A stretch of 64,000 nucleotides of DNA from an uncultured Gammaproteobacteria bacterium (GTDB lineage: Bacteria; Patescibacteriota; Microgenomatia; Levybacterales; UBA12049), in contig CAZEJU010000001.1 of assembly GCA_964512695.1 (NCBI GenBank), positions 7,803 to 71,802 of the forward strand. The letters are read 5' to 3'. Below the pieces are notes generated by a model that searched no databases, was not told the DNA's origin, and was given only the letters and a program-made list of their open reading frames with translations. The translations under genes and the position numbers were made by a program. Positions within the stretch are counted from its first letter, which is position 1. Each line of letters begins with the position of its first letter. Positions 21,555 through 38,390 of this stretch are shown in pieces.

Positions 21555-23063
21555 ATGGCGCGTAAAATACCAGCAACAATGGTCTCACAACATCCTGATA
21601 ATGCGAGTAAACCGTACTGGCATACGGAAGAATTTATTAGCACCCAACATGAAACATTTGAATGTTTCTTATCTTTCTCTGAACTTGGTGTCTCTGAATA
21701 TAAATGGGATTGGGAAGGAAAGCTCGTAGATGAGTCTATTATGGAACGGCTTTTTAGCCAGTATTATGAATTTTTTAAGACAAATCCACTAGGTTATAGC
21801 AAATTTCTCACATTCCGTCTTCCAAACCCAAAAGTAGAAACAGAATTCCGTATAGGGCGCGCTTTCATGGGTATTCTCAGTGCGGATATGTTAGCTCGTC
21901 AGCTTGGATTCTACAGTCCCTCCTTATTTGAAGTAATCTTACCAATGACAGAGTCAGCGCAAGAGATGATAGAAATTCAAGAAGCTTTTCGCGAAATGAG
22001 TGGATTAAAACATAAATTATATCGCATGGCAGATAAATCTCTTCGTCATATCGAATTGATTCCCTTATTTGAAGATGTACATACGATAATTAACTCTGCA
22101 AATATTCTCGAACAGTATATTAAACTTCACAAAAAGAAATTTAAATTTTTACCTTCATATATAAGGCCGTACATCGCTCGTTCTGATCCAGCATTAAACG
22201 CAGGAATTGTGCCTACGGTACTTGCAGCAAAAATCGCTCTTTCAAGATACAAAGCATTTTCAGAAAAAACTGGCATTCCTTTATATCCCGTTATAGGCTC
22301 TGCATCCTTACCGTTTCGCGGAGGGCTTACACCAGTAACTGTCGAAGCGTTTGCTAACGAATATAAAGGAGTCCGAACAGCTTTGCTCCAGAGCGCATTC
22401 CGATATGATTATGATAAAAATGTCGTTAAACAGGCAGTGGAACAGCTTGAAAAATTACTTCCTTCAAATAGTGCAATTTCAATACCCCAAAAAGACGAAA
22501 AAGTTATGATCGAGCTTATTAACTTATTCGAGGGATATTATAAACCTACTATAGAACAATTAGCAGATAAGATAAACGCAGTAGCCACATCTCTACCTCG
22601 CAGAAGAGAACGAGTGCAGCATGTGGGTTTATTCGGGTACTCAAGGGGTGTCGGAAAAGTAAAACTACCACGAGCCATAGGGTTTACCGCCGCTATGTAC
22701 TCACTGGGTATTCCTCCAGAAATAATAGGCACGGGACGAGGCATAAAAGAAGCAAAGGAACGCGGACTTCTGCCAGTACTCGAAAAGTATTATGTTAATC
22801 TACAAGCTGATCTCACTCGAGCAGGGAAATACGTTAATAAACCAGCAATTAAAAAACTCGCGAAAACTGATACGACATGGAATGATGTTTTAACAGATAT
22901 AACGGAAATCGAAAAATTCCTTAAGATAGCACTTGAACCTGAGACAGAAGAAGAGAAACAACATAAAACCATTACGGATGATATTACGAAGAAACTTGCT
23001 GCTGAGGAATCTATAGCAAAACTCATAGAACAAGCAGCAGTACTCCGAAAAAGTTTAGGATAG
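21555..23063 (+). CDS. phosphoenolpyruvate carboxylase, archaeal type (PpcA-like, ~500 aa)
   Basis: N-terminal IPATMVSQHPDNASKPYWH and overall length match archaeal-type PEPC. Confidence 0.5.
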   Translation: MARKIPATMVSQHPDNASKPYWHTEEFISTQHETFECFLSFSELGVSEYKWDWEGKLVDESIMERLFSQYYEFFKTNPLGYSKFLTFRLPNPKVETEFRIGRAFMGILSADMLARQLGFYSPSLFEVILPMTESAQEMIEIQEAFREMSGLKHKLYRMADKSLRHIELIPLFEDVHTIINSANILEQYIKLHKKKFKFLPSYIRPYIARSDPALNAGIVPTVLAAKIALSRYKAFSEKTGIPLYPVIGSASLPFRGGLTPVTVEAFANEYKGVRTALLQSAFRYDYDKNVVKQAVEQLEKLLPSNSAISIPQKDEKVMIELINLFEGYYKPTIEQLADKINAVATSLPRRRERVQHVGLFGYSRGVGKVKLPRAIGFTAAMYSLGIPPEIIGTGRGIKEAKERGLLPVLEKYYVNLQADLTRAGKYVNKPAIKKLAKTDTTWNDVLTDITEIEKFLKIALEPETEEEKQHKTITDDITKKLAAEESIAKLIEQAAVLRKSLG

Positions 23064-23073: not shown

Positions 23074-23658
23074 TTATTGAAACAACGGAACCGTACCAGA
23101 TCCTACTGAATAAGACTTTCTCTGCCATTCATAACCCATTTCTTCAGCTTTTCTTTCATGGACTTTGTTTAAATGTACTCTTACTGAATCTTGAAATCGA
23201 TATTCAGCTTCATCAGGGTCAAGATTTTCAGGAAATTCTGCAAATGGTCCTTCGCGTCTTCTAAACTGCTGATAATACTCACCACTAATCATACTTATTT
23301 CCTGAGGTTCAAGCACTAAGAGATCAGCCGCAAATTGAAATGTAGCACGAATGATTTGTATAGTTTTAGCTTCAGTAATATTTGTTGGGCCATTTCCGGT
23401 ATGCTTATGCGCTTTAACAGCTTTTTCCATAATTCTCCATACTAAGCTCCTGTCTTCAATTACTGCGTTTCCTAATAATCCCGGCTCAGAAAGCCCATCC
23501 CTTTTACAAATTTCAGCAATGACAGCAGCTTGAGCTGTAACAGATCCAGGCGTTCTTACACTTGCTTGGACAAATAAAGACTCTCCCAAAGTTTTTCTGT
23601 CATTTTCTGATACTTGAGAACCATCACGTGGTGTATATAACATTGCTTCTTTATTCAT
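23074..23658 (-). CDS. hypothetical protein
   Basis: 194-aa ORF. Divergent from the DUF62 gene promoter. Confidence 0.3.
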   Translation of the reverse strand: MNKEAMLYTPRDGSQVSENDRKTLGESLFVQASVRTPGSVTAQAAVIAEICKRDGLSEPGLLGNAVIEDRSLVWRIMEKAVKAHKHTGNGPTNITEAKTIQIIRATFQFAADLLVLEPQEISMISGEYYQQFRRREGPFAEFPENLDPDEAEYRFQDSVRVHLNKVHERKAEEMGYEWQRKSYSVGSGTVPLFQ

Positions 23659-23728
23659 AAATACTATAAGACAGAATTATACCAAGAATCTGCTTATTTG
23701 TATAGCACAATATTGAATGTAACACTTC

Positions 23729-23757
23729 TTGACAATAAGCAAAAAGTAGAGTATTAT
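23729..23757 (+). promoter_or_regulatory. sigma70-like promoter TTGACA-N17-TATTAT
   Basis: Read directly from the sequence; 17-nt spacer. Confidence 0.55.
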
Positions 23758-23770
23758 CGGATATAACGAT

Positions 23771-23821
23771 ATGCATTATATAAAAGTTGAAAACATGATG
23801 GCAATGATGATGACTTCCTAA
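23771..23821 (+). promoter_or_regulatory. Met-rich leader peptide ORF (MHYIKVENMMAMMMTS; five Met in the last eight codons)
   Basis: ATG CAT TAT ATA AAA GTT GAA AAC ATG ATG GCA ATG ATG ATG ACT TCC TAA begins ~7 nt after the predicted TSS. Its stop abuts an antiterminator arm, ggaggt at 23823-23828. Confidence 0.55.
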
Positions 23822-23852
23822 CGGAGGTGTATCACGTGCTGTTTGTGAACGA

Positions 23853-23875
23853 CCTCCTTACTAGGAGGTTTTTTT
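23853..23875 (+). terminator. intrinsic terminator CCTCCTtactAGGAGG + T7 (attenuator terminator; 3' arm doubles as SD)
   Basis: Perfect 6-bp GC-rich stem followed by seven T. The upstream ggaggt can alternatively pair with acctcc. Confidence 0.6.
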
Positions 23876-23886
23876 ATTGTAAAAAT

Positions 23887-24684
23887 ATGTTTGTGACCAT
23901 TATTAACGACTGTACAGATCATAACGTAATAGGAAGGCAACTAACCAGAGCAGCTGTCTTATTTTACGCGCCTGTTATTCCGGTTGGGGTTCACAACGAG
24001 TTAGAAGCTGCCGGAAACCTCATAGATGTTCTCGATGCTGCAGAAAAGGGAAAAGGAGTAATCATTCTGAATGTCGCACCCCGACATGGTAACGCGAAAA
24101 AGTGGCCGAATGGAACACCATTTGCGTACTTTAACGTCAATAATATACTTATTATAGCCACAATAGATGGCTACTCCTTGTCTCTTATAAAAAAACTCAG
24201 GATAATAGATTCCGTGAATCTCCTTGATATTCCTGATGTAGTTAACAGGATGCAAGAAGAACATGTCATTTCTTCAGAACTACGAGATCAAATCATTCAT
24301 ACGCAATTTCGAAGTTTCGAGTTCGCTCCCCGCGTAGCAAAGTGGCTGACCGAAAGAATAGAAATCCCCAGCACACCGTATGCTTTATCCCAAGTTCCTG
24401 ATGTACCAAAAGCTATATGGTATATCGATAATTTCGGAAACTGTAAAACCACACTCCTACCAGAAGATGTAAACTTCCAGGCAGGCAAAAAAGTTCATAC
24501 GGAATTAGGTGAGTTAGCTTGCTATAACAGATTAAAAGATGTCCCTGATGGAAAAACAGCTCTTATCATTGGTAGTTCAGGTTATAAAGATAAACGATTT
24601 ATCGAGTTAATAATCCAAGGTAAAAGCGCAGCACAGATATATGGTCTGCAAGTCGGATCATTAATCATAAATACTATTGGTTAA
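23887..24684 (+). CDS. SAM hydroxide adenosyltransferase family protein (DUF62; SalL/FlA fluorinase-chlorinase fold)
   Basis: N-terminal VTIINDCTD..; C-terminal IDNFGNCKTTL... closely parallels the fluorinase motif IDHPFGNVWTNI. Confidence 0.65.
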   Translation: MFVTIINDCTDHNVIGRQLTRAAVLFYAPVIPVGVHNELEAAGNLIDVLDAAEKGKGVIILNVAPRHGNAKKWPNGTPFAYFNVNNILIIATIDGYSLSLIKKLRIIDSVNLLDIPDVVNRMQEEHVISSELRDQIIHTQFRSFEFAPRVAKWLTERIEIPSTPYALSQVPDVPKAIWYIDNFGNCKTTLLPEDVNFQAGKKVHTELGELACYNRLKDVPDGKTALIIGSSGYKDKRFIELIIQGKSAAQIYGLQVGSLIINTIG

Positions 24685-24794
24685 ATTCGACACTACAGAA
24701 ATAACATTTATGGGAATTAAGATTACCATATTAAAAAATAACAGAAAAATACCTCAATGCCTGGACTAAAGGAATCTCGCATTACCGGCTATTA

Positions 24795-24823
24795 TTGACA
24801 AGCTCAGGCTGATAAGGTAAAGT
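24795..24823 (+). promoter_or_regulatory. sigma70-like promoter TTGACA-N17-TAAAGT
   Basis: Read directly from the sequence. Confidence 0.5.
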
Positions 24824-24828
24824 ATGGA

Positions 24829-25107
24829 AAGAATCAAGAGTGATGGGGAGACCCCAGTCTGATCTTCCTTTTCGCCTTAGTAGATTTCTACTTCGGCTTA
24901 AAGAGCGATCTTACCGGGGCGGGAGTTTTGGCTTCATGATCCATCCGGCAACCCTTCGGTAAGTTCAAACAATGCTTGAACAACGAGCAGGGTGCCAAAC
25001 CCAACCCAAGAGATGTGCTACCGAGTACATCTTCGTAAAGGAGGATTTGATCCTGAGACAATCGAAGGATAAACTATGTATTACCTCTCTTTACGAGAGG
25101 TTTTTTT
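24829..25107 (+). ncRNA. SAM-I (S-box) riboswitch with enlarged P3 and terminator expression platform
   Basis: Conserved S-box blocks AUCAAGAG (24833-40), CCGGCAACC (24945-53), GGUGCCAA (24981-88) and AGAGAUG. The P1 3' strand AAGAGA can alternatively pair with the UCUCUU 5' arm of the terminator 25084-25107. Confidence 0.6.
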
Positions 25108-25113
25108 ATTTAT

Positions 25114-26868
25114 ATGGCTAAAGAAGGTGAAATAAAAGGCACATATCAGTTTAGTATAGATGGCCCTCAGCTGACCAGTGACGATATACAGAGGAAGTTC
25201 CCTGGTGTCAAAAATAATGGTCATCTCGGAAAGACTGGTGTAGTACTACATGATACAGCAATTCCTATCGCAGCTATCCGACATCCTCGACTTATACCTA
25301 CGCGGTTAGATGGAATTATACCTGTGTTTGGTGGCCCCCAAACACACAGTAAAATAGAGCATATCCGTATCCGACCAGCTGGTGGCTCAGAAGCGAAAAG
25401 AATAGCAAAAGCAGTCCGTGGAACAACCCCAACACTCGGACCAGAAGCAGAAGCATTTGTACATAACAGAAGAACAGGCAGACTTGTACCTACATTTAAA
25501 GGAAAACAAATTGAAACACAAAAAGCACTGAGAGAAGATGCACTTGGACATACGGGATCGCTTGAAGAACACATCGTAGCATCTGCTAAATTTACAGTTT
25601 TTAGAGCTAATCAAGAGCGCAGACGAGGACGTATCGCAGTTGAAACAAGTGTTCCTATAACCTATGGTGAAGGTAAAGATGCTCGAGATAGTGAAGGTCT
25701 CGCAGGTAGTGAAAATCCATATATTGTGGCTATGACACATCTGTTCCCTGAAAATATGCTCCCTACAGAGAAGCTTGATCCACAAGTTGCAAGCGTTTTA
25801 AATCAATACGCTCTTCGCCATGGGTTTGCGACTATTTCTGATATGACCAGCGCTCTCGGTCTTAACCGCACCTGGCACATGGCTGCAAGCCATCTGAGTC
25901 TTGGTCTACCGCAGGAACAACAACCAGATGGGAAATATATTACTTCTACTGAGATCGCGATAGGAGTTATGAATGTATTTATGAGTGACCTTAATATTTC
26001 GCATATGTTTACTCATGGAACACCTATGCTAGGCGGACAATTAGTAGATGTTCCAGCACGAAATCGTCAATCAGAACATGTGGCCTCAAATCAACCGTTA
26101 CGGGATGTACGACTTGGTGCATTTAAGCATATGTTAGGCACTGCTTATCCTGGCCCGCTTATCGCGAATGAAGAAGATCTCTATGATCGCTGGAGAAAGA
26201 TTGTTATTCCAGGGAAAGCCGCGACTGTAGATCGAGCATCGGCAATTAGTATAGCACCAAATGGAGAAATCTATGCCTCAATGCATGCACGGGCTCGTCT
26301 TCGTGTGGGAGGTGATCCCACAAAACAAACTGTACGAGTCGAATCAGTAGGAGATAGCGCTACACCTTCACGCTACGACTTAATAGCGCGTGACGCGTAT
26401 CTAGTAATGTTATGGAACGGTGCTATGGAGGCAATGGCAAAAGGAAAAACCCCACAAGATTTCTGGGGGGGAAATTATCCAGCAATAACTGACTGGAAAA
26501 AGCAGCAGGAAGCGACATTAGGATTTTCTGTTAATGGACCAGCGAATAGGGAAGCACATGTGCTGATTGAACAAAACCTGGGGTTTTTACGTGATATGAA
26601 AGCTCTCCAACCTACATTAGGTACGTACATCGATTATGTAACAGCACGTATTCGTAATTTTAGTAGACCGACAAAAGCACACACACTCGATGAGTATACA
26701 ACAGATCCATCAGGTAGCATAAGCGAGGTAATTCGACGCATGAAAGAAACCGGATATAAAGATGATGAAATCGTGCGAGCTATTGACACACATCAAACTG
26801 CAGTATCACGAAGAGTTGTTCAAGTTCATGGAGATTTTAAAGCGCTTCTACAAGATGTACAAAAGTAA
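25114..26868 (+). CDS. hypothetical 584-aa protein under SAM-riboswitch control
   Basis: Long ORF with coding-like composition and no recognisable motif. Confidence 0.4.
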   Translation: MAKEGEIKGTYQFSIDGPQLTSDDIQRKFPGVKNNGHLGKTGVVLHDTAIPIAAIRHPRLIPTRLDGIIPVFGGPQTHSKIEHIRIRPAGGSEAKRIAKAVRGTTPTLGPEAEAFVHNRRTGRLVPTFKGKQIETQKALREDALGHTGSLEEHIVASAKFTVFRANQERRRGRIAVETSVPITYGEGKDARDSEGLAGSENPYIVAMTHLFPENMLPTEKLDPQVASVLNQYALRHGFATISDMTSALGLNRTWHMAASHLSLGLPQEQQPDGKYITSTEIAIGVMNVFMSDLNISHMFTHGTPMLGGQLVDVPARNRQSEHVASNQPLRDVRLGAFKHMLGTAYPGPLIANEEDLYDRWRKIVIPGKAATVDRASAISIAPNGEIYASMHARARLRVGGDPTKQTVRVESVGDSATPSRYDLIARDAYLVMLWNGAMEAMAKGKTPQDFWGGNYPAITDWKKQQEATLGFSVNGPANREAHVLIEQNLGFLRDMKALQPTLGTYIDYVTARIRNFSRPTKAHTLDEYTTDPSGSISEVIRRMKETGYKDDEIVRAIDTHQTAVSRRVVQVHGDFKALLQDVQK

Positions 26869-27021
26869 CATTTGACAATATATTTGTAAATATAATTGAC
26901 AATATTACATATCTTTCAGTTAGTAATTATGAGTGCTGCCAATGCCTCTCAATACTTTTCGCACTCACTCACATCCTATAGTTGAATTTCTTCTCATATC
27001 TTTGTTACAATTTACCCCTAT

Positions 27022-28503
27022 ATGTCCCGAATACACGAATTACCAAGTATCCATACACTCTCTTCTACTGATGCTCAAAGATATTGGGATAAGTTACATC
27101 CAATAAAAGTTGTATCTCATGAGAGACCCCTGCAATACGGACATCCAGTTGAAATTCCTCCTAAACTCGCAGGAACTATTGGCAGATCAGCAAATCTCAT
27201 GGAAGAAATTGCGATAGATAGCATTATGCAACAAGGGGCCACTACATGGCTTGGAAATAATGCGGCTTCTTTCGCAGGTGATAGTCTTAACATACAAGAA
27301 ATCAACCACCAGCTCGAAGGTAGGCTTCTTCAAGGCTATCGATTACCTATTAGTTACGATGGAATGATAACAGTCTTTCGTGGAAGACCACATTATACAG
27401 TAGTGGAAGCACAATCTCTAGTTGCTCATGGCCCATGGATTCGGTCTATGCTTCAAGCAGCAGATAAAGATCCAGATGATCCATCATCATGGCAAGGGAA
27501 AGAAAATCCTACCCTCGTAGTTCAACAAATGAAAGACAATTTCGCGAAGGGTGAAGTTATAACAGTATTAGATACCACTCCACTTTCAGGTCCATTTATT
27601 CATGAACAAGTGGGTCTAGCGAAAGCATTAGGAACATCGGGAAGCGTGCCTATTTCTGCGCTTGATATCCAATTTAATCCTGAAATAGGTTATTTTCATT
27701 ACGGTTATGCAGTTGATACTAGAGGCTACCCTATACCAAATGGAAACGGCTTTTTAAGAACATCCGACCGAATACCAATCCGGCATGTGTTAAGCCGTAT
27801 GACGCAACCTGATCTGGATCATTTATACAATCTGGTCCGCGGTAACCCCCAACAAAGTGAACTTATACTCAAGTTCTTACGAGATGAAAAGATTAATTGG
27901 ATCTGGCATCCAGCATGGCAGTCCCTCATCGATAAATCGAGATTACCATATATCTGTAAAAAACTGGAAGAAAGACAAGAAAACGTAACACGCAATCAAT
28001 TTGTTCCGATTTTCGTAGCCGGTGAAACTCCACCCCTAGGAACGTATGTGCGTAAACCCGTAAGCAGCGTCCAAGGTGAAGGAGTAACAATTGTGCAAGT
28101 TAATGGCGTACCTCAACAAGTCGAAGAAGGCACAGTATACCAAAAGTATTTTTACCCGTATCCGTTTTCCATTCCCTTAGACGCAGAAATAGCACGGCAA
28201 TTTCCTGTAACACCCCATGCTCCCAGAAATGTCGCGTCTGGCTTCCAGGAACATTTCGGTTGGGGACAAACCACAACGCCTGCTAGTCTAGAATTATGTT
28301 ATATGGTGCCACCTTGGTGTAAAGGAGAACTTACGGGATATTTTATAGGGAGAGTAGCACCCAGGTATACAGGACCAGATTCAAGAAACATAACCCAAAC
28401 AAACCTCTCAAAAGCGCAAGCTGCGATGTACGAATATATCCGAGATCAGGATCATTGGAAAACACCCTTCGGCTTTTCCCCTGTAACTCTTCAAAAGACT
28501 TAA
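27022..28503 (+). CDS. hypothetical 493-aa protein
   Basis: Long ORF preceded by a TTGACA promoter and a Ser-rich 18-codon uORF at 26929-26985. Confidence 0.4.
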   Translation: MSRIHELPSIHTLSSTDAQRYWDKLHPIKVVSHERPLQYGHPVEIPPKLAGTIGRSANLMEEIAIDSIMQQGATTWLGNNAASFAGDSLNIQEINHQLEGRLLQGYRLPISYDGMITVFRGRPHYTVVEAQSLVAHGPWIRSMLQAADKDPDDPSSWQGKENPTLVVQQMKDNFAKGEVITVLDTTPLSGPFIHEQVGLAKALGTSGSVPISALDIQFNPEIGYFHYGYAVDTRGYPIPNGNGFLRTSDRIPIRHVLSRMTQPDLDHLYNLVRGNPQQSELILKFLRDEKINWIWHPAWQSLIDKSRLPYICKKLEERQENVTRNQFVPIFVAGETPPLGTYVRKPVSSVQGEGVTIVQVNGVPQQVEEGTVYQKYFYPYPFSIPLDAEIARQFPVTPHAPRNVASGFQEHFGWGQTTTPASLELCYMVPPWCKGELTGYFIGRVAPRYTGPDSRNITQTNLSKAQAAMYEYIRDQDHWKTPFGFSPVTLQKT

Positions 28504-28528
28504 GCACACATACTCTTAAGTTTAAATA

Positions 28529-28557
28529 TTGACAATTTATAATTGATCTGGTAAGAT
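28529..28557 (+). promoter_or_regulatory. sigma70-like promoter TTGACA-N17-TAAGAT
   Basis: Read directly from the sequence. Confidence 0.55.
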
Positions 28558-28569
28558 TATAAGACAAAT

Positions 28570-28620
28570 ATGCAACATACGTTTAATTCTATTATTGTCG
28601 TCCTTCTCGTTACCCATTAA
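28570..28620 (+). promoter_or_regulatory. branched-chain-amino-acid-rich leader peptide ORF (MQHTFNSIIVVLLVTH)
   Basis: ATG CAA CAT ACG TTT AAT TCT ATT ATT GTC GTC CTT CTC GTT ACC CAT TAA. Seven consecutive Ile/Val/Leu codons; near-leaderless. Confidence 0.55.
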
Positions 28621-28650
28621 TTGGGCGGAGGACTCGTGTTAAAAAACGTA

Positions 28651-28675
28651 CCCGCTCAAAGAAGCGGGTTTTTTT
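28651..28675 (+). terminator. intrinsic terminator CCCGCTcaaagaAGCGGG + T7
   Basis: Followed by the tiny ORF ATG TTT TAA, then the AAGGAG SD and the main ATG at 28697. Confidence 0.6.
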
Positions 28676-28696
28676 ATGTTTTAAAAGGAGAAATAT

Positions 28697-30556
28697 ATGA
28701 GTTCACATAAAGAATATGCAGGGCAAGCTGCTCTCAAATCCTTAGCTGAAAGATATATTAGAAGGTATGGCTTAAAAGCTGATTTTAATCCCGAAGAGAC
28801 AGGTGGAGTAATTTTCGCTCAAGACGGTACACCACTAAGGCAAGTCCGTGCTCCTTTCTGGAGAGCAGAAAAAGGTGCAAAGGGAACAGGCAGAAAAGAT
28901 ATGCCTAGAGTTTACACTGCTACAAATCCTGACCCGGATAAACCTAACTCAGGATTAGAATTAGAATTCCAAGCTTTCCATGCCATGACAGGAGAAATGG
29001 AACCAGTCATGGATGCAGACCACCCAGTACATCAGGGGTTATTGGAACACAATCGAAAAGCAAAAAATGGACACACTGAAAATAATGGAAATGGACTTGG
29101 AAACGGAAATGGGGTTAATGGATATGTTTTTGTAGAAGACGGCGCTGACTGGGACCATGACTTCCCAACTGGACCTAAAGAAGTAGGATTTAGCCCAGAG
29201 CTAACACGTCATACTTTGGAGGAAAACTTTCCTCCGAATGTAGATTCCGGAACACGAAACAGAGAGACATTATATGGTATTAGCACAGTTGTACAATTAG
29301 CAGAAGCAAATAACACACTTATCTCTCCGTTCTCGACTATACCGCATCGAGATATTACACAAATTGATACGAATCAACATCCATATGTCCAACGCATAGC
29401 GTTCGAACACATGGGTCCCGAAAAAGTTAAACACTTTACAGGTACTTCACTGCAAATTCACGTAGAAATCAAGGATTTAGAGTCAGCTTTACACGCTGCA
29501 AACCGTTGGCAGCTAGTTACACCTATTATGTATGCGGGAACACTTTCAGCACCTTTTATCGCAGGAGAAATAACACCCGATTTACAAGAACGGTATGGTC
29601 AAGTTCCCGACGTGGTTGGCGATCCACTAAAAGAAAGCACATTTGATACTATGACACAAGGACCCCATGAATCATATAGATATTATGGTAGATTAATAGG
29701 ATCACCTTCTGGAGGTGCAATGAGACAGCCTCTACCTGAAACATCTGAAGAATTTTGGTCTGCGGCTAATAATCTTCTAAAATCAGGAGAAAGTCCTTCC
29801 GTGGGTAGAGTAGCAGGACACCATGCAGATTTTCGTATTCGCCCTGACTTGGGACCGTATGGCACAATCGAGTTAGCAGTATTAGATACTGCCGGTGCGC
29901 GCATTCCAAATATCGTAGCCATTCAAGAATTCTCCAGAGCTTTGGGTTGGAAGTTACAGAGACAAGCAGGTAATTGGGAACAAATTATGGAAGATCCTCG
30001 TTTTAAATCGATATTCGGGCAAGCACCTTCTAAGGAAACATTCGAGACTGTTCACTGGAATACTATAGAGGTAGCAAAACATGGAAATAAGGCAATGATT
30101 ACTGGTATGGACGGAGAACAGCATTCTATAGCAGAGTTATGGAGTAAGTTAGTGGAATATGTACAAGAACCTATTGAAGAAACCGGTTATACTGGTTTAC
30201 CGGAAGGTATTATCGAGGTATTAGATAAAGCTTATCAAGACCCATCAGAACTATTTGATGTTTATAAAGACGAAAAAGGAGTTACTTCTGTCAAAGGATT
30301 CTATGAAACCGGAGTCGGAACTATGAGCCAGTGGGCCAGACAACGTGCAGAAGAGTTGAAAGCAAGAGGCTTAGCAGAAAAAGAAGCCATTATCGATACT
30401 ACACTTAATGTAGGCAAAAGCTTTCATGAACATGTAAAGTCAATGACACCCAAAGATCTTAATACTTTATATGTAAGCGCTAACAAGGATGTGGATAAAT
30501 CACCCCAATACAGCGCTAATGGTCAGAATCCATCATACCAAACCACTGCGTCCTAA
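28697..30556 (+). CDS. GCS2/YbdK-like carboxylate-amine ligase family protein
   Basis: Motif order parallels E. coli YbdK: GLELEFQAF; SLQIHVEI (GQHVHVG-like); HHADFRIRPDLGPYGTIELAVLDT (HWDIRP..GTVEVRVMDT-like). Confidence 0.5.
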   Translation: MSSHKEYAGQAALKSLAERYIRRYGLKADFNPEETGGVIFAQDGTPLRQVRAPFWRAEKGAKGTGRKDMPRVYTATNPDPDKPNSGLELEFQAFHAMTGEMEPVMDADHPVHQGLLEHNRKAKNGHTENNGNGLGNGNGVNGYVFVEDGADWDHDFPTGPKEVGFSPELTRHTLEENFPPNVDSGTRNRETLYGISTVVQLAEANNTLISPFSTIPHRDITQIDTNQHPYVQRIAFEHMGPEKVKHFTGTSLQIHVEIKDLESALHAANRWQLVTPIMYAGTLSAPFIAGEITPDLQERYGQVPDVVGDPLKESTFDTMTQGPHESYRYYGRLIGSPSGGAMRQPLPETSEEFWSAANNLLKSGESPSVGRVAGHHADFRIRPDLGPYGTIELAVLDTAGARIPNIVAIQEFSRALGWKLQRQAGNWEQIMEDPRFKSIFGQAPSKETFETVHWNTIEVAKHGNKAMITGMDGEQHSIAELWSKLVEYVQEPIEETGYTGLPEGIIEVLDKAYQDPSELFDVYKDEKGVTSVKGFYETGVGTMSQWARQRAEELKARGLAEKEAIIDTTLNVGKSFHEHVKSMTPKDLNTLYVSANKDVDKSPQYSANGQNPSYQTTAS

Positions 30557-30590
30557 CAAGTATCAACTATTGTTGTGATACAATAACAAC

Positions 30591-31676
30591 ATGATTCAAC
30601 AAGAAAGGCTTCTAAAAACATTCTTCGATCTTGTTTCAATCGATAGTCCTACAGGTGAAGAAGAACGCATTCGTAACGAACTCTCAAATCGTTTGAAAAA
30701 ACTTGGCGCTGAAACAGTGGAAAAAGATACCTATGGTAACCTCATAGCGAAATTCCATGGTGAAGGTGAACCGCTCATGATTAACTGCCATATGGACACT
30801 GTAGAGCCCGGTAGAGGCATAGTACCAATTATGAAAGGTGATAGAGTAGAAACCGACGGGAAGACAATTCTAGCGGGTGATGCAAAGGCAGGTTTAGCGA
30901 TTATCCTCGAAGCCTTAACTTCACTAAAAGAAGAAAATAAAAAACATGTACCTATCGAAATCGTCTTTACTGTAGAGGAGGAAACTGGACTTTATGGAGC
31001 TGTTAACCTCGACTATTCAAAAGTCTCCGCAAAAAAAGGATTTGTTTTTGATGGTTCAAAAGATCCTTGTACCTTAACCACATCAGCACCGGGATATTAT
31101 AGAGTCGATGTTACAATCATAGGAAGAGCGGCTCATGCGGGAGCCGAACCTGAAAAAGGTATTTCAGCTATTAAAATCGCTTCTGATATTATTACGAAGC
31201 TCGAGGTAGGCAGAATTGATGAAGAAACTACGGCAAACGTCGGTATTATAGAAGGCGGAAGCGCCCGGAATGCAGTACCAGAAAAAGCACATTTTAAGGC
31301 AGAAATTCGAAGTAGAAAGCTAGAAAAGCTTGAAAAACATGCAGGTCATTTCCAAGAAGTTTTTGAGGAAGCGATGAAGAAACATCCTGAAGCGAAAATA
31401 GAGATAGACATGCATTTAGAATTTAATCCATATATTTTCGATGAAAACCATCATGTTATTCAGCTTGCGAGTAAAGCGTTAAGCGAACTAGGACAAACAC
31501 CGAAACTTGCACCTTCGAATGGAGGATCCGATGTCAATATTTTTATTTCACACGATATAGAAACAGTGGCTGTAGGAATTGGCGATTATAATGCTCATAC
31601 AACCCGCGAATACGTCGTCATATCTGAAATAGTGTTAGGAGCTAGACTCTGCGAAAAACTCCTTGAGGCGAAGTAA
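30591..31676 (+). CDS. M20 family peptidase, peptidase T (PepT)-like
   Basis: LLKTFFDLVSIDSPTGEE; metal-binding HMDTV, GAVN/DGS region and E-rich catalytic region. Paralog of 39896. Confidence 0.7.
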   Translation: MIQQERLLKTFFDLVSIDSPTGEEERIRNELSNRLKKLGAETVEKDTYGNLIAKFHGEGEPLMINCHMDTVEPGRGIVPIMKGDRVETDGKTILAGDAKAGLAIILEALTSLKEENKKHVPIEIVFTVEEETGLYGAVNLDYSKVSAKKGFVFDGSKDPCTLTTSAPGYYRVDVTIIGRAAHAGAEPEKGISAIKIASDIITKLEVGRIDEETTANVGIIEGGSARNAVPEKAHFKAEIRSRKLEKLEKHAGHFQEVFEEAMKKHPEAKIEIDMHLEFNPYIFDENHHVIQLASKALSELGQTPKLAPSNGGSDVNIFISHDIETVAVGIGDYNAHTTREYVVISEIVLGARLCEKLLEAK

Positions 31677-31759
31677 ATTGGTATATTGCTAAACTGCTAA
31701 TTGTTACGTGAGAGTAACCATACAACAATACCCATATCAATAAATTTTCGCTACAAAAA

Positions 31760-31788
31760 TTGACACGTCATTAACCTCATGGTAGAAT
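31760..31788 (+). promoter_or_regulatory. sigma70 promoter TTGACA-N17-TAGAAT
   Basis: Read directly from the sequence. Confidence 0.6.
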
Positions 31789-31794
31789 TACTAT

Positions 31795-32108
31795 AACATA
31801 CGAATAACAGCGTTGATCCAGTATGGATGGGACTGGGGATTCTCCTTCATTAAAGTTACGCAAGGAGAGCGCTGGGTCTAATCAACCCCGGAGGCGAAAC
31901 CGTAAAAAGATCAGCAACATGTGTCATAGCTGCAGATAAGCACTGATTAAAAGCTGATTCTCGCTGATATAGAGCATGTCATGAATGAGAAGTCCTCCCA
32001 CGCCAAAGCTCCGGAGGATAAAACAAGGTGGCACCGTCCTTAAATAAACGTGGGACCCTTGTAAATAACTACAAAGTAATTTTGTGGTTGTTTACAAGGG
32101 TTTTTTTA
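31795..32108 (+). ncRNA. T-box riboswitch leader (antiterminator AAGG-UGGCACC-GUCC; terminator + T7)
   Basis: AAGGUGGCACCGUCC (~32026-32040) matches the T-box consensus AGGGUGGNACCGCG, including the 7-nt UGGNACC bulge. The 3' strand GGACCCUUG overlaps the 5' arm of the terminator 32057-32108. A candidate Stem I spans GUUGAUC...GAUCAGCAAC. Confidence 0.5.
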
Positions 32109-32120
32109 ATGGTAAAAACT

Positions 32121-33269
32121 ATGAAAGAAGGAGTTATTATACAAGTTGATCCGAGAATACCAGAGCCATATATAACATATATCCGGCAACGAAATGGGAA
32201 TGTCGGCAGAGATATAGCAGATCACCTTGGCCTACCCTATGTAGGAGACAGTCAGGGAGTACAACGTGCAGCTGATTATTATCCTGTACTTGCCAGAACT
32301 GTCACCAGAGAACATGCAAGAGTATTAGGTGCAGAAAATACAAGAGATTTCTATGGTCTTGCAGTTGAAGATTTAAATGTTGTGGGTAAATCTATACTCC
32401 ATCCTTCTATAAGCAGAAGACATCCTTTATTTCATAGAGAACAATTCGCACGAAAAGTCTTAGGTCAAACCCTTCCTGGTATAACCGGTTTCTCTAAAGA
32501 AGATTTATTAGCAGGGTATGAAAATGGTTACGCTGGATCACTGGATCATGCTTTAGATTACGAGCAGTATGGATTACGTGTTAAACTTCCAAATGAATCC
32601 GACGGCGTAGGACAATTTACTATACAAAGCAAGGATGATCTGGTTACTCTTCTAGAAGCTATTGAGGATAAAGATATCCACGAACAAGGACTGGTTCTGG
32701 AAGCTGATGTACAGAAACCTGAGACTATATCAGTCGGATTCGCGAGAATCGGTGATGAACAATTAAGTTTCATAGCCCAACAAAAAGATGCACGTGTGTT
32801 AGTAGATCATAAGGGCAAAACAATAGAGCAGAATAGATATGGTGGGGCATACGTCGTTGTGGCAAAAGGCCCTTTACAGTTACTATGCCAAGCCACGGAA
32901 GCAACTTCGCGTGAGAGATCTGCTGTAGAAAAAACACTGGCGTTTCATGAAGCCTATCAACGCATCTATGATCCTTTAGCTTCGAGATTAAGTTTCGATG
33001 TCATTTTCGGAGAAGGGAAAAACGGTCTCCCACTTGCAGGAATAAGTGACATTACTGGTAGGCTAGGTGGAACGTGTCCAGCACTCATGCAAGCTGCTGA
33101 AGAGTTCAGGAAAAACCCTTCTATTCAAATGGTAGGAACAGAAGTATCTCTTAATTATACTCCCCATGTACGATTTCCCTATGAAGATGAAGCTAAGGTG
33201 TATGTAGACCACCCAACACTCAGACTTACAGCAAGAGTAAACTCAAAACACAGAAGACTCGCAGCATAG
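32121..33269 (+). CDS. ATP-grasp-like protein
   Basis: GLRVKLPNESDGVGQFTIQSKDDL resembles the ATP-grasp central motif, but weakly. Start set at MKEGV downstream of the T-box terminator; the ORF-track start lies inside the leader. Confidence 0.35.
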   Translation: MKEGVIIQVDPRIPEPYITYIRQRNGNVGRDIADHLGLPYVGDSQGVQRAADYYPVLARTVTREHARVLGAENTRDFYGLAVEDLNVVGKSILHPSISRRHPLFHREQFARKVLGQTLPGITGFSKEDLLAGYENGYAGSLDHALDYEQYGLRVKLPNESDGVGQFTIQSKDDLVTLLEAIEDKDIHEQGLVLEADVQKPETISVGFARIGDEQLSFIAQQKDARVLVDHKGKTIEQNRYGGAYVVVAKGPLQLLCQATEATSRERSAVEKTLAFHEAYQRIYDPLASRLSFDVIFGEGKNGLPLAGISDITGRLGGTCPALMQAAEEFRKNPSIQMVGTEVSLNYTPHVRFPYEDEAKVYVDHPTLRLTARVNSKHRRLAA

Positions 33270-33278
33270 ACATGAATC

Positions 33279-33307
33279 TTGACATTACACATGGGCTATC
33301 CTATAAT
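33279..33307 (+). promoter_or_regulatory. consensus sigma70 promoter TTGACA-N17-TATAAT
   Basis: Read directly from the sequence. Confidence 0.65.
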
Positions 33308-33314
33308 CATTTAT

Positions 33315-33371
33315 ATGATACGACAAGCAGTAAATTTCTTTTTCTTTTTTACCCCACTCGCGGGGAGGTAA
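33315..33371 (+). promoter_or_regulatory. Phe-rich leader peptide ORF (MIRQAVNFFFFFTPLAGR; five consecutive Phe codons)
   Basis: ATG ATA CGA CAA GCA GTA AAT TTC TTT TTC TTT TTT ACC CCA CTC GCG GGG AGG TAA. Leaderless. Its 3' end runs through the hairpin CCCCACUCGCGGGG, whose GCGGGG can alternatively pair with the CCCCGC of the terminator. Confidence 0.6.
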
Positions 33372-33398
33372 TTTCGTGATCACACGAAATACTCTATA

Positions 33399-33422
33399 CC
33401 CCGCATAAGGCGGGGTTTTTTT
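33399..33422 (+). terminator. intrinsic terminator CCCCGCataagGCGGGG + T7
   Basis: Directly followed by the ATG of the tiny ORF MEEFYGND, then the main start at 33436. Confidence 0.6.
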
Positions 33423-33435
33423 ATGGAGGAATTCT

Positions 33436-35136
33436 ATGGCAATGACTGAACAAGACATACTAAAAGGTACAATGAACGGCCGAGTTGATTCAGGTTTAAA
33501 GGCAACTGATAACACAGCAGTACCTTTAGGTGAACAATCTCATGGCGGCATAGTCCGAAATACCGATGGACTATGGTGGCTACCTGCCTCACCACATCGC
33601 GGAAGGGGTTTCGAATGGCAAGACTCAAAGGATCCTAGATATAACGCAACACATTTAAGTGAAGTTGGCTACCACCCTGAACCTCTAGAACCACAGAGAA
33701 CCGTAGAAGTATTAGCTGAACATTTACAAGAAAAAGTTGAAGGAAGAATTCCGGAAACAGAAACCCATGGAGTTGAAGTTGAAGGGACTACCTATGATCG
33801 AGAAGGCAATCTCTTAGCAATTCCTGTCGATCAGAAAACAAATCCCGAATTATTAGCTTCTACACATGAAGAAGCCACAAAACTGGAAAACGGACAGTAC
33901 CCGAGAAAACCATTTGAAATAGCTCGAGCAGTAGCCAGTGCAACCCAGCGGGGTATCGCAATCGCTGAAAATCATAGCGGAATACTTGTCCTCACAGAAG
34001 TACCAGAAGGTGGAACATTTCATGATGCTGAAAACAGTACATTTCCATATATAGTACGTCAACAAGGAAGAATTCGAAGACACGCATTAGCACACCTTGA
34101 TGAGATACCTGAAGAAACATGGGCTCTCTATCGACGTTACGGCGTAGATATTCGAGAACTACTGGAATCTAATAGACCGCTCAATTGGCCTACTCATGGA
34201 TTGCATCATCATGCCGGTGCGCCACAAATAGAAGGATTAGTCGACCCGAGAGCCGCACTGGTTATGGGAAAAATGCGTCAAACACTTTTTGCAAAATTAC
34301 TGCAATACCCAGCATTTAATAGCAGTAGATTATATGAAAAAGAAACTGATCTCCGCGGAGTCCGATCTGTCGCAAAACACGCGCTTGCTACAACAGTTAA
34401 TAATGATTTACCTGATAGTGCTGAAGAGCTAATGTGGGATGTGCAACGGGCAATGAGAGAGGGAGAAATCGCTACGCCTTCACGATATCCTTATAAAGGC
34501 CAACACGATGTCGTTCGATTTAGGATGGATGGAAAACATAAAACTGTCGAGTCTATTAAAGATCCTATGACACCTGACCTATTAACAGCGCTTCATCTCG
34601 TGTTCGGCAATCAACTCCTGGATACCATCGGCCAGCAAGCTCTCGTACAAGTAGGTGGAGATGAAAGCAAAGTTATGGGTTATTTACAATCTATACATCC
34701 TGAGCTTTTTGCCACATTGCCTTCATTAGGTCCTGAGTCATCACATAGTGCAGATATGCAGTTTAATAAAGCAGGGTATCTAGGAACATTCCGCGGGAAA
34801 ACTTATGCTGAGCTTATAAGAGATGCACGTGCTGTCGTGGAAGGGGTAGGCAAACATTATACAGCACTTGAGACACAAGCTAAAATTGTAAATCACGTAC
34901 TAGGATACCAAACAGATATTCCTCATCCACAGACTGATCTAGCAACATTTATGGGAATAAAAAATGGAGTTTACCAACCAAATAGTATGAGAGCAGGAAT
35001 TCTAACGGATTATAAAACGGGTATTCCTACAAATGAACTGTTAGTTGTCCAGGCTGAAGCAACGAAATTACAAGCTCAAGCTTTAGCACAAGTGAGAGAT
35101 GATAAAGATCTTCTCGAAGTGTATGGATTACAGTAA
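33436..35136 (+). CDS. GCS2/YbdK-like carboxylate-amine ligase family paralog
   Basis: THGLHHHAG and VVRFRMDGKHKTVESI align with the GxHVHVG and HWDIRP..GTVEVR motifs of the family. Paralog of 28697, 41323 and 56332. Confidence 0.4.
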   Translation: MAMTEQDILKGTMNGRVDSGLKATDNTAVPLGEQSHGGIVRNTDGLWWLPASPHRGRGFEWQDSKDPRYNATHLSEVGYHPEPLEPQRTVEVLAEHLQEKVEGRIPETETHGVEVEGTTYDREGNLLAIPVDQKTNPELLASTHEEATKLENGQYPRKPFEIARAVASATQRGIAIAENHSGILVLTEVPEGGTFHDAENSTFPYIVRQQGRIRRHALAHLDEIPEETWALYRRYGVDIRELLESNRPLNWPTHGLHHHAGAPQIEGLVDPRAALVMGKMRQTLFAKLLQYPAFNSSRLYEKETDLRGVRSVAKHALATTVNNDLPDSAEELMWDVQRAMREGEIATPSRYPYKGQHDVVRFRMDGKHKTVESIKDPMTPDLLTALHLVFGNQLLDTIGQQALVQVGGDESKVMGYLQSIHPELFATLPSLGPESSHSADMQFNKAGYLGTFRGKTYAELIRDARAVVEGVGKHYTALETQAKIVNHVLGYQTDIPHPQTDLATFMGIKNGVYQPNSMRAGILTDYKTGIPTNELLVVQAEATKLQAQALAQVRDDKDLLEVYGLQ

Positions 35137-35139
35137 GCT

Positions 35140-35982
35140 TTATTCTCCTGACCAGGACATGGCATTCATAGCTATTTGAGAATCCATATCCAAATTCTTC
35201 AAAGTAAGTGGCAGAAAAGATACATTACTTAATAAGACAGCTCGTTCTAAGGGGGTATTTTCCAGAATAGGAGCATACAGTCGTCCTTCAATACCATCTC
35301 GGACTTCCTTCACATTAACAGAATCAGTAACACCAACCACAGGTACTGTAATTGAGTGTTTTTCTATCTGTAAATATTTCGAGGGCCAGATAAGATCTGG
35401 ATTTTCACTATCTGAAACGAAAAACTGTCTACCATTCGCAGGAACTACTAAACCTGATACAGCAGGTCTGGTATCAAAACTCTGGCCTTCATCACCCCAT
35501 AACATCTCACGAATGTCCTGGTGTACGTAACCTCTTCCACCTGAAAGGAGCGCAGCGCCATTCGCGTTGGAATAGAGCAATCCGAATGCTATACCTATCT
35601 CATCTAATTCTATGGCAGCAGGGGATGCAGCACGCTCTGAAAGTGATAAAGAAGCAGTACGCATTTGTTGCATCTGACTTATAGCACCTCTATGCTTCTG
35701 CATAACCATTTCTCTAACAGATTCACGTTCTTTATTAAAAGCTGACCATGTAGCAGGGAGAACGTCTATATATGCAGTTATACCCAATTCTTCGCGAATT
35801 GTTTTCTCTAATGCAGCCACCCTATCCATAGCGATCAATCGCTCACGGTCAGCGTGGATACTAGCGCCAATATCCTTACCTGCCAGAGCTTTTAAATAAG
35901 CAGCATGATACTCAGCATATAACGTGCGTAGTTGTTGGGTGTAGATTTGCAGCAATCTCGAATTTTCTCTACGTTCTATCAT
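35140..35982 (-). CDS. hypothetical protein
   Basis: 280-aa ORF downstream of tRNA-Val(GAC) on the minus strand. Confidence 0.35.
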   Translation of the reverse strand: MIERRENSRLLQIYTQQLRTLYAEYHAAYLKALAGKDIGASIHADRERLIAMDRVAALEKTIREELGITAYIDVLPATWSAFNKERESVREMVMQKHRGAISQMQQMRTASLSLSERAASPAAIELDEIGIAFGLLYSNANGAALLSGGRGYVHQDIREMLWGDEGQSFDTRPAVSGLVVPANGRQFFVSDSENPDLIWPSKYLQIEKHSITVPVVGVTDSVNVKEVRDGIEGRLYAPILENTPLERAVLLSNVSFLPLTLKNLDMDSQIAMNAMSWSGE

Positions 35983-36100
35983 GGGTAATATTATATATTA
36001 TAGGATCTAATTCACACAAGCATACGGGTCGGTATTTTCCAGCACAGTTATTTATTAAGCAGTTTGTAATATTAGGAAGACTATTGTAGTTAGTAAAGTG

Positions 36101-36174
36101 TGGGGCCAAGTGGACTTGAACCACTGACCTTTTCAATGTCAATGAAACGCTCTAGCCAACTGAGCTATGGCCCC
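36101..36174 (-). tRNA. tRNA-Val (anticodon GAC)
   Basis: Acceptor GGGGCCA/UGGCCCC, D-loop AGUUGGCUA, anticodon loop UUGACAU, T-loop UUCAAGU, discriminator A. Confidence 0.8.
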
Positions 36175-36306
36175 ATTTTTTACAATCACCATTCTAACAA
36201 AATAGTACTTGTAAAACAATCTTTCTCGTTTTCTAGCATTGTTAATATTTTTACTGTATTTATTGACATAGCTTTATGACCTTCTGTTATACTATCTGCA
36301 TACTTA

Positions 36307-36900
36307 TTGGGGCAACAAATGACAAGATCTGAAGCATATACAATGCTTACAAAATATCTCCATAATAAAAACCTTATTAAGCATTGTCTTGCTGCTGAAG
36401 CGACAATGAAAGCTTTATATAAACGCCTGACTCCACAGCATGAACAAAACCCAGCAGATGAGGAAAAATGGGGGATTGTGGGACTCATGCATGATGCGGA
36501 TTATGAAATTGCACAACAGACAAACCAGCTTGATAAACATGGATTGTTACTCTTTGAAAAAGAACAGGGAACAATACCAGATGATATCGCGCATGCTATT
36601 AAATCTCACAATTTTTTAAACACGAGAGTAATGCCAGAGAATGCCATGGATTGGGCTATAGAAACATGTGATCAACTAACAGGGCTTATCGTCGCAGCCG
36701 CGCTCATCCACCCTGATAGAAAATTATCCTCACTAGATACACAATTCGTATTAAACCGATTTCACGAAAAATCATTTGCGAAGGGAGCAAAACGTGAGGC
36801 GATTATTCTCGCTGAAAAAAAGCTAGGGTTACAGCTAGAAGAATTCATAACAGTTACATTAAAGGCAATGCAAGGAATTAGTACAGAATTGGGATTGTAA
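36307..36900 (+). CDS. HD-domain phosphohydrolase
   Basis: H...HD motif (GLMHDADYE); ~190 aa. A TTGACA-N18-TATACT promoter lies upstream. Confidence 0.6.
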   Translation: MGQQMTRSEAYTMLTKYLHNKNLIKHCLAAEATMKALYKRLTPQHEQNPADEEKWGIVGLMHDADYEIAQQTNQLDKHGLLLFEKEQGTIPDDIAHAIKSHNFLNTRVMPENAMDWAIETCDQLTGLIVAAALIHPDRKLSSLDTQFVLNRFHEKSFAKGAKREAIILAEKKLGLQLEEFITVTLKAMQGISTELGL

Positions 36901-36930
36901 TTTATACTTTTATTCTCCATAATATTTTTA

Positions 36931-37152: not shown

Positions 37153-37163
37153 TAACTGCTGTA

Positions 37164-37192
37164 TTGACGAACTGTATGACTCATGGTATATT
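37164..37192 (+). promoter_or_regulatory. sigma70-like promoter TTGACG-N17-TATATT
   Basis: Read directly from the sequence. Confidence 0.55.
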
Positions 37193-37202
37193 GCTCAAAT
37201 AT

Positions 37203-38376: not shown

Positions 38377-38390
38377 ACAAAGTGTTCTAT

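Follow-up and report, generated by a model that had tools for sequence, protein, structure and literature searches.

The window analyzed here is a 64,000-nucleotide (nt) stretch, taken whole, of contig CAZEJU010000001.1 from an uncultured bacterium of the Patescibacteria, or candidate phyla radiation (CPR). A gene on its plus strand (23887-24684) encodes a 265-amino-acid protein with a divergent DUF62 fold, as assigned from Pfam, an AlphaFold2 model, and Foldseek. This study concerns the 5′ leader of that gene, a putative methionine-sensing attenuator. The whole leader is only about 110 nt long and contains a small open reading frame (sORF) that looks translated and an intrinsic terminator. 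The upstream neighbor gene (23074-23658) is on the minus strand and, thus, the terminator belongs to the 5′ leader and not to the end of the preceding gene.

The leader, all on the plus strand, begins with a promoter-like site, TTGACA-N17-TATTAT, which has 11 of 12 consensus matches in a consensus promoter scan. The -35 hexamer (TTGACA) is at 23729-23734 and the -10 hexamer (TATTAT) follows after a 17-nt spacer at 23752-23757. Transcription would start at approximately 23763-23765, which would leave 6-8 nt without a Shine-Dalgarno sequence ahead of the sORF. The sORF, MHYIKVENMMAMMMTS, is on the strand of the gene and has 16 sense codons and a stop (ATG at 23771, TAA at 23819-23821). The presumed regulatory codon run, ATG ATG GCA ATG ATG ATG, occupies 23795-23812 and places Met codons at 23795, 23798, 23804, 23807, and 23810, which is five in six codons.

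Four RNA segments that can pair in different ways come after the run. Segment 1, ACUUCC (23813-23818), pairs with segment 2 and would be covered by a ribosome stalled at the final Met codons. Segment 2, GGAGGUGU (23823-23830), has either segment 1 or segment 3 as its partner. Segment 3, AC.ACCUCC (23849-23857), is common to the antiterminator, formed by the 2:3 duplex, and the terminator; an inner stem-loop, UCACG/UGUGA (23832-23848), extends the antiterminator in the 2:3 fold. The terminator hairpin (segments 3:4, 23851-23870) has the 3′ arm AGGAGGUU, eight pairs, of which four are G-C, and the 4-nt loop UACU. A U7 tract found by sequence and scan (23869-23875) completes it. The ATG of the gene (23887) is 11 nt past the T7 run and 65 nt past the end of the sORF.

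A sequence-only reading of this stretch had already proposed the promoter, the 16-codon ORF with five Met in six codons, and the hairpin-U7 terminator 11 nt before a DUF62 start, and all three were confirmed. Two of its distances needed correction: the sORF starts 13 nt, not 7 nt, past the -10 hexamer, and the stop codon does not directly abut GGAGGU, as C23822 intervenes. The pairing that it proposed between GGAGGU and ACCUCC (GGAGGT at 23823-23828 and ACCTCC at 23852-23857 in the DNA) holds, but the helix is longer than was stated, with GGAGGUGU pairing with AC.ACCUCC and the inner 5-bp stem added. It also overlooked segment 1 and the 1:2 hairpin, in which ACUUCC pairs with GGAGGU and the stop codon is in the loop. 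The motif ATGATGNNNATGATG is found once in the window, both strands considered, compared to 0.01 expected from 100 shuffles. The leader is also present, within 1398 nt of identical sequence, in an independent assembly (Logan SRR8893623).

Conservation and reading frame of the methionine run

The upstream regions of homologs of the downstream protein in 80 genome loci were compared together with that of the window, for a total of 81 regions. Almost all the homologs are from Patescibacteria/CPR metagenome-assembled genomes. At least four in-frame ATGs within seven codons were found in 17 of the 81 regions. Three more loci (L055, L108, and L111) have a like architecture with 3-4 Met codons, bringing the total to 20 loci. 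The Met-rich ORF is, therefore, conserved, with an in-frame Met-run sORF and a terminator upstream of the homolog in 19 other loci. The proteins of these 19 loci are 50-66% identical to the window protein. The closest relative found, L108 (66% identity), has the sORF MNRQNTASTMMMSAS and also a GCUUCC-UAAC-GGAGGU hairpin. The run has 3-6 Met codons in the other loci, and a hairpin and T-run come after the sORF in all 20 loci.

The element is also specific to its place. A both-strand scan of all the collected sequence gave 23 Met-run matches, 17 of which are exactly the upstream regions of the homolog. The exact motif ATGATGNNNATGATG is present in 12 loci and is upstream of the homolog in 11 of them, including the independent copy of the window. 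In a neighbor-joining protein tree, the 20 positive loci are all in one part, where they make up 20 of 35 leaves, compared to none of about 58 elsewhere. This distribution fits an element that was inherited with one gene subfamily and then lost repeatedly.

Next, the reading frame of the run was considered. Before the Met run, an in-frame ATG with an open frame lies 4-14 codons upstream in 20/20 loci, compared to 1/20 in each other frame. Across the run regions of the 20 loci, ATG occurs 87 times in frame 0 and never in the other two frames. The interspersed spacer codons vary freely, with 19 different codons seen, and the remainder of the leader peptide (N-terminus, residues after the run, and length) varies between loci. 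Because the frame is shared, the in-frame start is dedicated, and the spacer codons are unconstrained, we argue that the Met run is read as codons. No Shine-Dalgarno sequence was found before the sORF in any of the 20 loci. By eye, a -10-like hexamer ends 6-7 nt before the sORF ATG in seven loci, which implies a leaderless mRNA for these, and 8-13 nt before it in the others.

Another possible explanation is that the AUG repeats are read by an RNA-binding regulator resembling TRAP or HutP, or form part of a riboswitch of unknown type, with no role for the ribosome. TRAP and HutP use repeated triplets upstream of a terminator, the window sORF is without a Shine-Dalgarno sequence, and some relatives retain the hairpins and terminator with no Met run, all of which could be expected of such an element. 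However, the confinement of the ATGs to one frame (87:0:0), the dedicated start codon in every locus, and the leaderless-like spacing from the -10-like hexamer, as judged by eye, in seven loci point to translation. The stop codon is always where a terminating ribosome would cover segment 2, and there is no match to an Rfam family. Also, the sister leaders of the window described below use degenerate codons (ACT/ACC/ACA), which would be intolerable to a sequence-specific RNA binder. We, therefore, regard this explanation as very unlikely and treat the run as regulatory codons in what follows.

Some leaders close to the positive loci look like decayed attenuators. About 150 nt upstream of the homolog, L002, L005, L107, and L109/L110 have lost the Met run but retain the promoter, part of the segment 1/2 hairpin, and a terminator of reduced strength. 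The degenerate sORF of L109 is MSMARDFSDLRVSITS, and L005 is without any ATG. A metagenome search with a single protein query returned mostly a clade in which the gene is directly behind a pseudouridine-synthase-like gene and has no leader. Several Met-run matches were rejected: that of L018 (725-787) is within a coding region, that of L030 (MMIRMMNNARENT) has no terminator, that of L053 looks by eye like the end of an upstream coding gene, and the L063 and window minus-strand matches, at 34227 and 1037, look like chance. In L102, from a more distant genome, the sORF MMVMMMNIEYQ (1345-1380) precedes a different gene with no clear terminator. This sORF may have arisen by chance, or it may belong to a different type of Met-sensing leader.

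Alternative helices and ribosome geometry

The antiterminator pairing was examined by shuffle tests and by self-versus-cross permutation tests instead of per-column covariation counts, since the helix lengths and loop sizes are too different for a trustworthy alignment. In the window, the 2:3 duplex alone has an energy of -12.7 kcal/mol (z = -2.9, p = 0.013 compared to shuffles). The duplex is better than shuffles in 14 of the 20 loci (p < 0.05), with a mean z of -2.8. Segment 2 pairs with the segment 3 of its own locus at a mean of -15.2 kcal/mol, compared to -10.8 kcal/mol with those of other loci (permutation p < 1e-4). The helix sequences vary by locus, as in GGAGGU/ACCUCC, GGGGUUGUUG/CAACAACCCC, and GGGCCGGACCUUU/AAAGGCCGGCCC, and these differing, locus-specific helices amount to co-variation of whole helices. 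The 1:2 hairpin of the window, ACUUCC-UAAC-GGAGGU, has a z of -2.0. Such hairpins are found in most of the 20 loci, and their signal compared to shuffles is modest overall (mean z = -1.3).

By RNA folding, the energies in the window are -7.1 kcal/mol for 1:2, -15.4 kcal/mol for the 2:3 antiterminator, and -12.1 kcal/mol for the 3:4 terminator. The two outcomes that the sequence-only reading had set against each other are, thus, energetically competitive. Constrained folding was used to place the ribosome. A ribosome placed at the stop codon leaves the terminator in the fold of lowest energy in 19/20 loci. When it sits instead on the last Met codon, before segment 4 has been made, segment 3 finds an upstream partner in all 20 loci, and in 17/20 the resulting fold equals or exceeds the terminator hairpin in stability. 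The masked folds, therefore, behave as expected across the loci.

Counted from the first base of the last Met codon, segment 2 is reached after 9-16 nt (median 13 nt) in 19/20 loci. The window distance is 12 nt if the duplex is counted from C23822 or 13 nt if it is counted to G23823. The mRNA that a ribosome protects 3′ of its A site is about 13 nt long. The position of the stop codon relative to segment 2 floats, from -24 nt (inside the downstream side of segment 2) to +3 nt (before it). This suggests that the element is locked to the Met codons by about one ribosome footprint, and not to the stop. At this spacing, a ribosome stalled at the regulatory codons would mask segment 1 and leave segment 2 free, and one at the stop would mask segment 2.

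The sORF could also encode a small Met-rich peptide with a function of its own, such as metal binding or antioxidant protection, or it could precede a constitutive partial terminator, with a Met run that senses nothing. Small proteins are common and often unannotated, and relatives without the Met run still keep a terminator-like hairpin. These ideas do not explain why the Met run keeps a fixed distance to segment 2 or why 2:3 and 3:4 co-vary locus by locus, and the peptide is not conserved beyond its Met codons. The sORF is also confined to the region upstream of one gene subfamily. We find an explanation of this kind extremely improbable.

A proposed methionine attenuator and its relation to known systems

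Taken together, these results make it likely that the window leader is a ribosome-mediated leader-peptide transcription attenuator with AUG as the regulatory codon, which would induce a methionine-releasing, S-adenosylmethionine (SAM)-cleaving enzyme. The attenuator interpretation of the sequence-only reading is supported in this, as both the conservation and the pairing-competition tests came out in its favor. Transcription would begin just past TATTAT, and a ribosome would load on the sORF, whose start is probably near-leaderless. When Met-tRNA(Met) is plentiful, the ribosome would reach the stop at 23819 and cover segment 2 (23823-23830); alternatively, it would depart from the stop and the 1:2 hairpin would form. 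Either way, segment 3 would be free to pair with segment 4, and the hairpin and U7 would stop the polymerase 11 nt short of the gene. If charged elongator tRNA(Met) runs low, we infer that the ribosome stalls with one of the last AUGs in its A site. It would then cover the mRNA to about 23822, so that segment 1 is buried and segment 2 is exposed. Segment 2 would pair with segment 3 before segment 4 is transcribed, the terminator would be blocked, and the polymerase would read into the DUF62-like gene. Read-through would free methionine and adenosine from SAM under methionine limitation.

The regulated protein was examined for its relation to enzymes of this kind. It has a match to the Pfam C-terminal domain, SAM_HAT_C (E = 2.3e-9, 37.9 bits compared to a 25.5-bit cut-off), while the NCBIfam (R)-SAM hydrolase equivalog scores 16 bits against a cut-off of 350 bits. 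The AlphaFold2 model has a predicted local distance difference test score (pLDDT) of 92.7. The top 12 Foldseek matches to this model in the PDB are all DUF62, fluorinase, or SalL structures, with E-values of 9e-11 to 5e-7 and template-modeling scores (TM) of 0.6-0.67. Identity to solved DUF62-superfamily structures is 12-15%, and the DNFGN motif of the protein aligns with DRFGN of MJ1651 (DxFGN). As judged from the model, the protein belongs to the DUF62/fluorinase superfamily but is very divergent within it. It has in common with the DUF62/SAM hydroxide adenosyltransferase/(R)-SAM hydrolases (PH0463, MJ1651, and TM structures), FlA, and SalL the two-domain fold, and differs from them in its low identity and its lack of a Pfam N-domain match. 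To our knowledge, all characterized members of the superfamily displace L-methionine from C5′ of SAM. Since the window protein is so divergent, with the C-terminal Pfam domain alone and 12-15% identity, its SAM-to-methionine activity is a prediction by analogy. The sequence-only reading had called the product a DUF62 SAM hydrolase; the fold is borne out by Foldseek and SAM_HAT_C, and hydrolysis would be expected from this kinship. No metK, metG, or methionine transporter gene was found in the 64-kb window in Pfam and NCBIfam scans of most of its larger ORFs.

Several observations weigh against this interpretation. The first group concerns the switch. At equilibrium, the full window leader with a stalled ribosome keeps the terminator (-16.0 compared to -15.4 kcal/mol), and the terminator is lost at full-length equilibrium with a stalled ribosome in only 7/20 loci. 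It follows that the switch has to be decided kinetically, as it is in classical attenuators. Segment 1 would remain uncovered if the ribosome stalled on the first two Met codons, and a nested structure of 1:4 and 2:3 is also available to the free RNA. The window sORF is without a Shine-Dalgarno sequence and is 13 nt from the -10 hexamer, compared to 6-7 nt for a clean leaderless start. The Met run is missing from 15 of the 35 subfamily members, and some close relatives have relics only (L109, L005, L002, and L107). Also, methionine starvation should deplete fMet-tRNA and cut initiation on the leader itself, which would favor default termination. This would make the switch workable only under partial methionine limitation.

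The second group concerns the enzyme, which is by sequence only remotely related to the characterized DUF62 proteins. The Pfam N-domain (SAM_HAT_N) has no match even at E ≤ 5. A CPR-clade profile search of PDB sequences found none below E = 0.1 (best 0.12), and the comparison of folds was, thus, needed. The inactive (R)-SAM epimer is reported to be the preferred substrate of archaeal DUF62 enzymes (bioRxiv 10.1101/2025.08.29.672840). Because of this preference, and because methionine is still a product of that reaction, the physiological aim may be repair rather than methionine supply, or repair and salvage combined.

The difficulty with initiation would be sidestepped if the Met-rich peptide, held in the exit tunnel or peptidyl-transferase center, sensed free SAM or methionine and arrested the ribosome at the same place. 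The inducer of the SAM-cleaving enzyme would then be high SAM and not low Met-tRNA. The stall geometry would be identical, with segment 2 one footprint past the Met run, and substrate induction would be logical for an enzyme that degrades SAM or clears (R)-SAM (bioRxiv 10.1101/2025.08.29.672840). There are parallels for ligand-dependent nascent-peptide arrest in TnaC, which senses tryptophan, and in plant CGS1, which senses SAM. However, known arrest peptides depend on specific residues, and in these leaders only the Met residues are conserved, while the N-terminal parts, spacers, post-run residues, and length vary. Also, Thr, Phe, and branched-chain runs with synonymous variation share the architecture in the window, and this is a signature of hungry-codon sensing. 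We consider nascent-peptide arrest quite unlikely and retain stalling at hungry AUG codons as the preferred mechanism.

Comparison with known RNA families did not identify the leader. At gathering thresholds, tRNAs were the only Rfam matches in the whole window. With the cut-off relaxed to E ≤ 10, 23600-23950 had no SAM riboswitch or T-box, and nothing credible came from Rfam E-value scans of 23600-23950, 24650-25150, and 31740-32130. The best Rfam match in the leader is Phe_leader, with 19 bits compared to a 55-bit cut-off, and it covers the terminator alone. Full-text literature searches found no methionine leader-peptide attenuator and no leader-peptide attenuation in CPR bacteria. The sequence-only reading likewise knew of no methionine attenuator of this type.

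The precedents closest to the window element are the enterobacterial amino-acid leaders and the polycysteine sORFs of mycobacteria. Leader-peptide attenuation is a textbook mechanism. The enterobacterial attenuators (trpL, hisL, leuL, thrL, pheL, and ilvL/ivbL; Rfam Trp_leader, His_leader, Leu_leader, Thr_leader, and Phe_leader) have in common with the window element a short ORF in which codons for the sensed amino acid form a run. They also share the four-segment RNA with exclusive 1:2, 2:3, and 3:4 pairings, the intrinsic terminator before the gene, and the masking of segment 1. In contrast to them, the window element would sense AUG, and methionine is also needed to start its leader peptide. 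It has no Shine-Dalgarno sequence and is leaderless or nearly so, its host belongs to the Patescibacteria/CPR, its target is a single enzyme of the SAM-cleaving type instead of a biosynthetic operon, and it has no sequence similarity to the Rfam leader models.

As far as the account of Canestrari et al. goes (bioRxiv 10.1101/834739), the polycysteine leaderless sORFs of mycobacteria are single-amino-acid runs that serve as ribosome-stalling sensors, with several per genome forming a "ribulon". In the same account, they control downstream genes of the metabolism of that amino acid, and they act on translation and not on termination. The window element, compared to these sORFs as they are described there, has a canonical hairpin and U-tract terminator, which would make it transcriptional, and concerns methionine and another phylum. 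SAM riboswitches (S-box and others), Met T-boxes, and MetJ/MtaR likewise govern methionine and SAM genes, several of them by a choice between terminator and antiterminator in the 5′ leader. They differ from the window leader in their mode of sensing, which is by direct recognition of SAM, by RNA-RNA contact with uncharged tRNA(Met), or through a protein repressor.

The conserved family of AUG-run leaders suggests that attenuation is usable for methionine. One possible reason why no other Met attenuator turned up in the literature searched is that methionine is needed to start the leader peptide. The element would also extend ribosome-mediated attenuation to the Patescibacteria/CPR, a very large radiation, almost all of it uncultured, about whose gene regulation next to nothing is known. 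It offers a regulatory clue to the long-debated role of DUF62 as well: if the gene is induced by methionine shortage, this points to the recovery of methionine from SAM.

Sister leaders and the ligase-fold gene island

The window was scanned for other sORFs with single-amino-acid codon runs that are followed by a terminator. Every sister leader found has a promoter of its own, a hairpin made of segment 1, the stop, and segment 2, and a terminator. The Thr leader (41086-41206) has a peptide ending in GTTTTTTLS, with the codons ACT ACC ACT ACA ACA ACC. Its sORF begins at 41086 or 41107 and ends at 41154, its terminator is at 41181-41200, and it precedes the gene at 41323-43107. This leader recurs with synonymous changes, as MSKSIIITTTTTTLS, before a 76%-identical orthologue in L113. 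The Thr-regulated protein (594 amino acids) belongs to a rare family with about 50 representatives among 1.84 billion and has a YbdK/gamma-glutamylcysteine-ligase fold (AlphaFold2 pLDDT 91; Foldseek E ~1e-7). The thrS gene (43198-44937) starts 90 nt past it and may be co-transcribed.

The Phe leader, MIRQAVNFFFFFTPLAGR (unit 33279-33423), has the codon run TTC TTT TTC TTT TTT. Its promoter (33279-33307) has 12 of 12 consensus matches, and the -10 hexamer ends 7 nt before the ATG, implying a leaderless mRNA. The sORF (33315-33371) and terminator (33398-33416) precede the gene at 33436-35136, whose 566-amino-acid product has no Pfam or NCBIfam match. In another genome, a Phe leader, MITASTSFGFFFFFTPQMAG (L114 4821-4950), is found before a gene for a 566-amino-acid protein.

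The Ile/Val/Leu leader, MQHTFNSIIVVLLVTH (28529-28677), has its sORF at 28570-28620 and its terminator at 28650-28669. It precedes the gene at 28697-30556, for a 619-amino-acid protein with a weak match to YbdK-family carboxylate-amine ligases (E = 4.5e-6). L114 also has a branched-chain leader, MKFRVLSVIILVLLITA (2830-2990), which is before a 37%-identical homolog of the Thr-regulated protein; the gene with the Phe leader is the neighbor of this homolog. A possible Asn leader, MNIMNNNGAVKKNLS (38347-38494), lies before an ATP-grasp gene (38616-39899) and an M20 peptidase gene (39896-40966). The leader MKSTFLVCCVTTLL (37164-37297), with an ambiguous codon specificity, lies before a gene for a 330-amino-acid protein, the true start of which is probably the ATG at 37297 and not 37270.

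Since Thr, Phe, and branched-chain leaders are present in the window, and those for Thr and Phe recur in other genomes, this lineage appears to use leader-peptide (hungry-codon) attenuation routinely. For this reason, ribosome stalling is far more likely as an explanation of the Met leader than an RNA-binding protein, a riboswitch, or an arrest peptide. A broader possibility, which we put forward tentatively and at somewhat less than even chances, is that the Met leader is one member of an unrecognized, CPR-wide "ribulon". Its members would be sORFs that are leaderless or nearly so and carry Met, Thr, Phe, branched-chain, and possibly other runs, each gating its own gene by transcription attenuation. 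The gated genes lie in an island of unusual enzymes, namely a divergent DUF62-fold protein of the SAM-cleaving type, several YbdK/gamma-glutamylcysteine-ligase-fold paralogues, ATP-grasp ligases, and M20 peptidases. Organisms thought to be nearly without amino-acid metabolism and regulation would then monitor the charging of individual tRNAs and respond with dedicated, uncharacterized salvage enzymes, with SAM as a methionine reserve or source. It would also mean that ribosome-mediated attenuation can work for the initiator amino acid. The Thr, Phe, and branched-chain leaders would serve as functional labels, each naming an amino acid for uncharacterized ligase-fold proteins.

The island itself (25114-43107) is rich in ligase-fold proteins (YbdK/GCS2-like, ATP-grasp, and DUF3182), and most of its genes carry their own attenuator-type leader. 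Its two M20 peptidases (30591-31676 and 39896-40966) are paralogous and 37% identical. At 24795-25108, a promoter-like TTGACA-N17-TAAAGT stands ahead of a structured RNA about 280 nt in length (-94.2 kcal/mol, z = -4.3). This RNA ends in a terminator-like hairpin and T7, 5 nt before the ATG at 25114. The gene there encodes a 584-amino-acid protein that is a 26%-identical paralogue of the Thr-regulated protein. The RNA could be a riboswitch-like leader of unknown type or a separate noncoding RNA.

A further leader, at 31760-32108, has the promoter TTGACA-N17-TAGAAT, a length of about 320 nt, and a 20-bp hairpin and T7 just before the DUF3182 (ATP-grasp-like) gene. The listed GTG start of that gene (32028) falls inside the leader, and the real start is probably an ATG at about 32109-32122. 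A T-box identity for 31789-32108, which was prompted by the string GGUGGCACCG, was rejected because it had no support from Rfam. Elsewhere in the window, an archaeal-type phosphoenolpyruvate carboxylase (PF14010) is encoded at 21555-23063.

Finally, hydrophobic sORFs with strong terminators adjoin the DUF62-like gene in four loci: L007 (4073-6060, minus strand), L013 (4375-6041, minus strand), L018 (4330-6606, minus strand), and L045 (1159-1257, plus strand). Examples are MAKAAIQNLNSIIVLLVVLLVGASFGRAF and MRSIFSIIASIIINSPVAGRYFGRLSID, and they precede small ORFs of 63-115 amino acids. They may be Ile/Leu/Val leaders or small membrane peptides.

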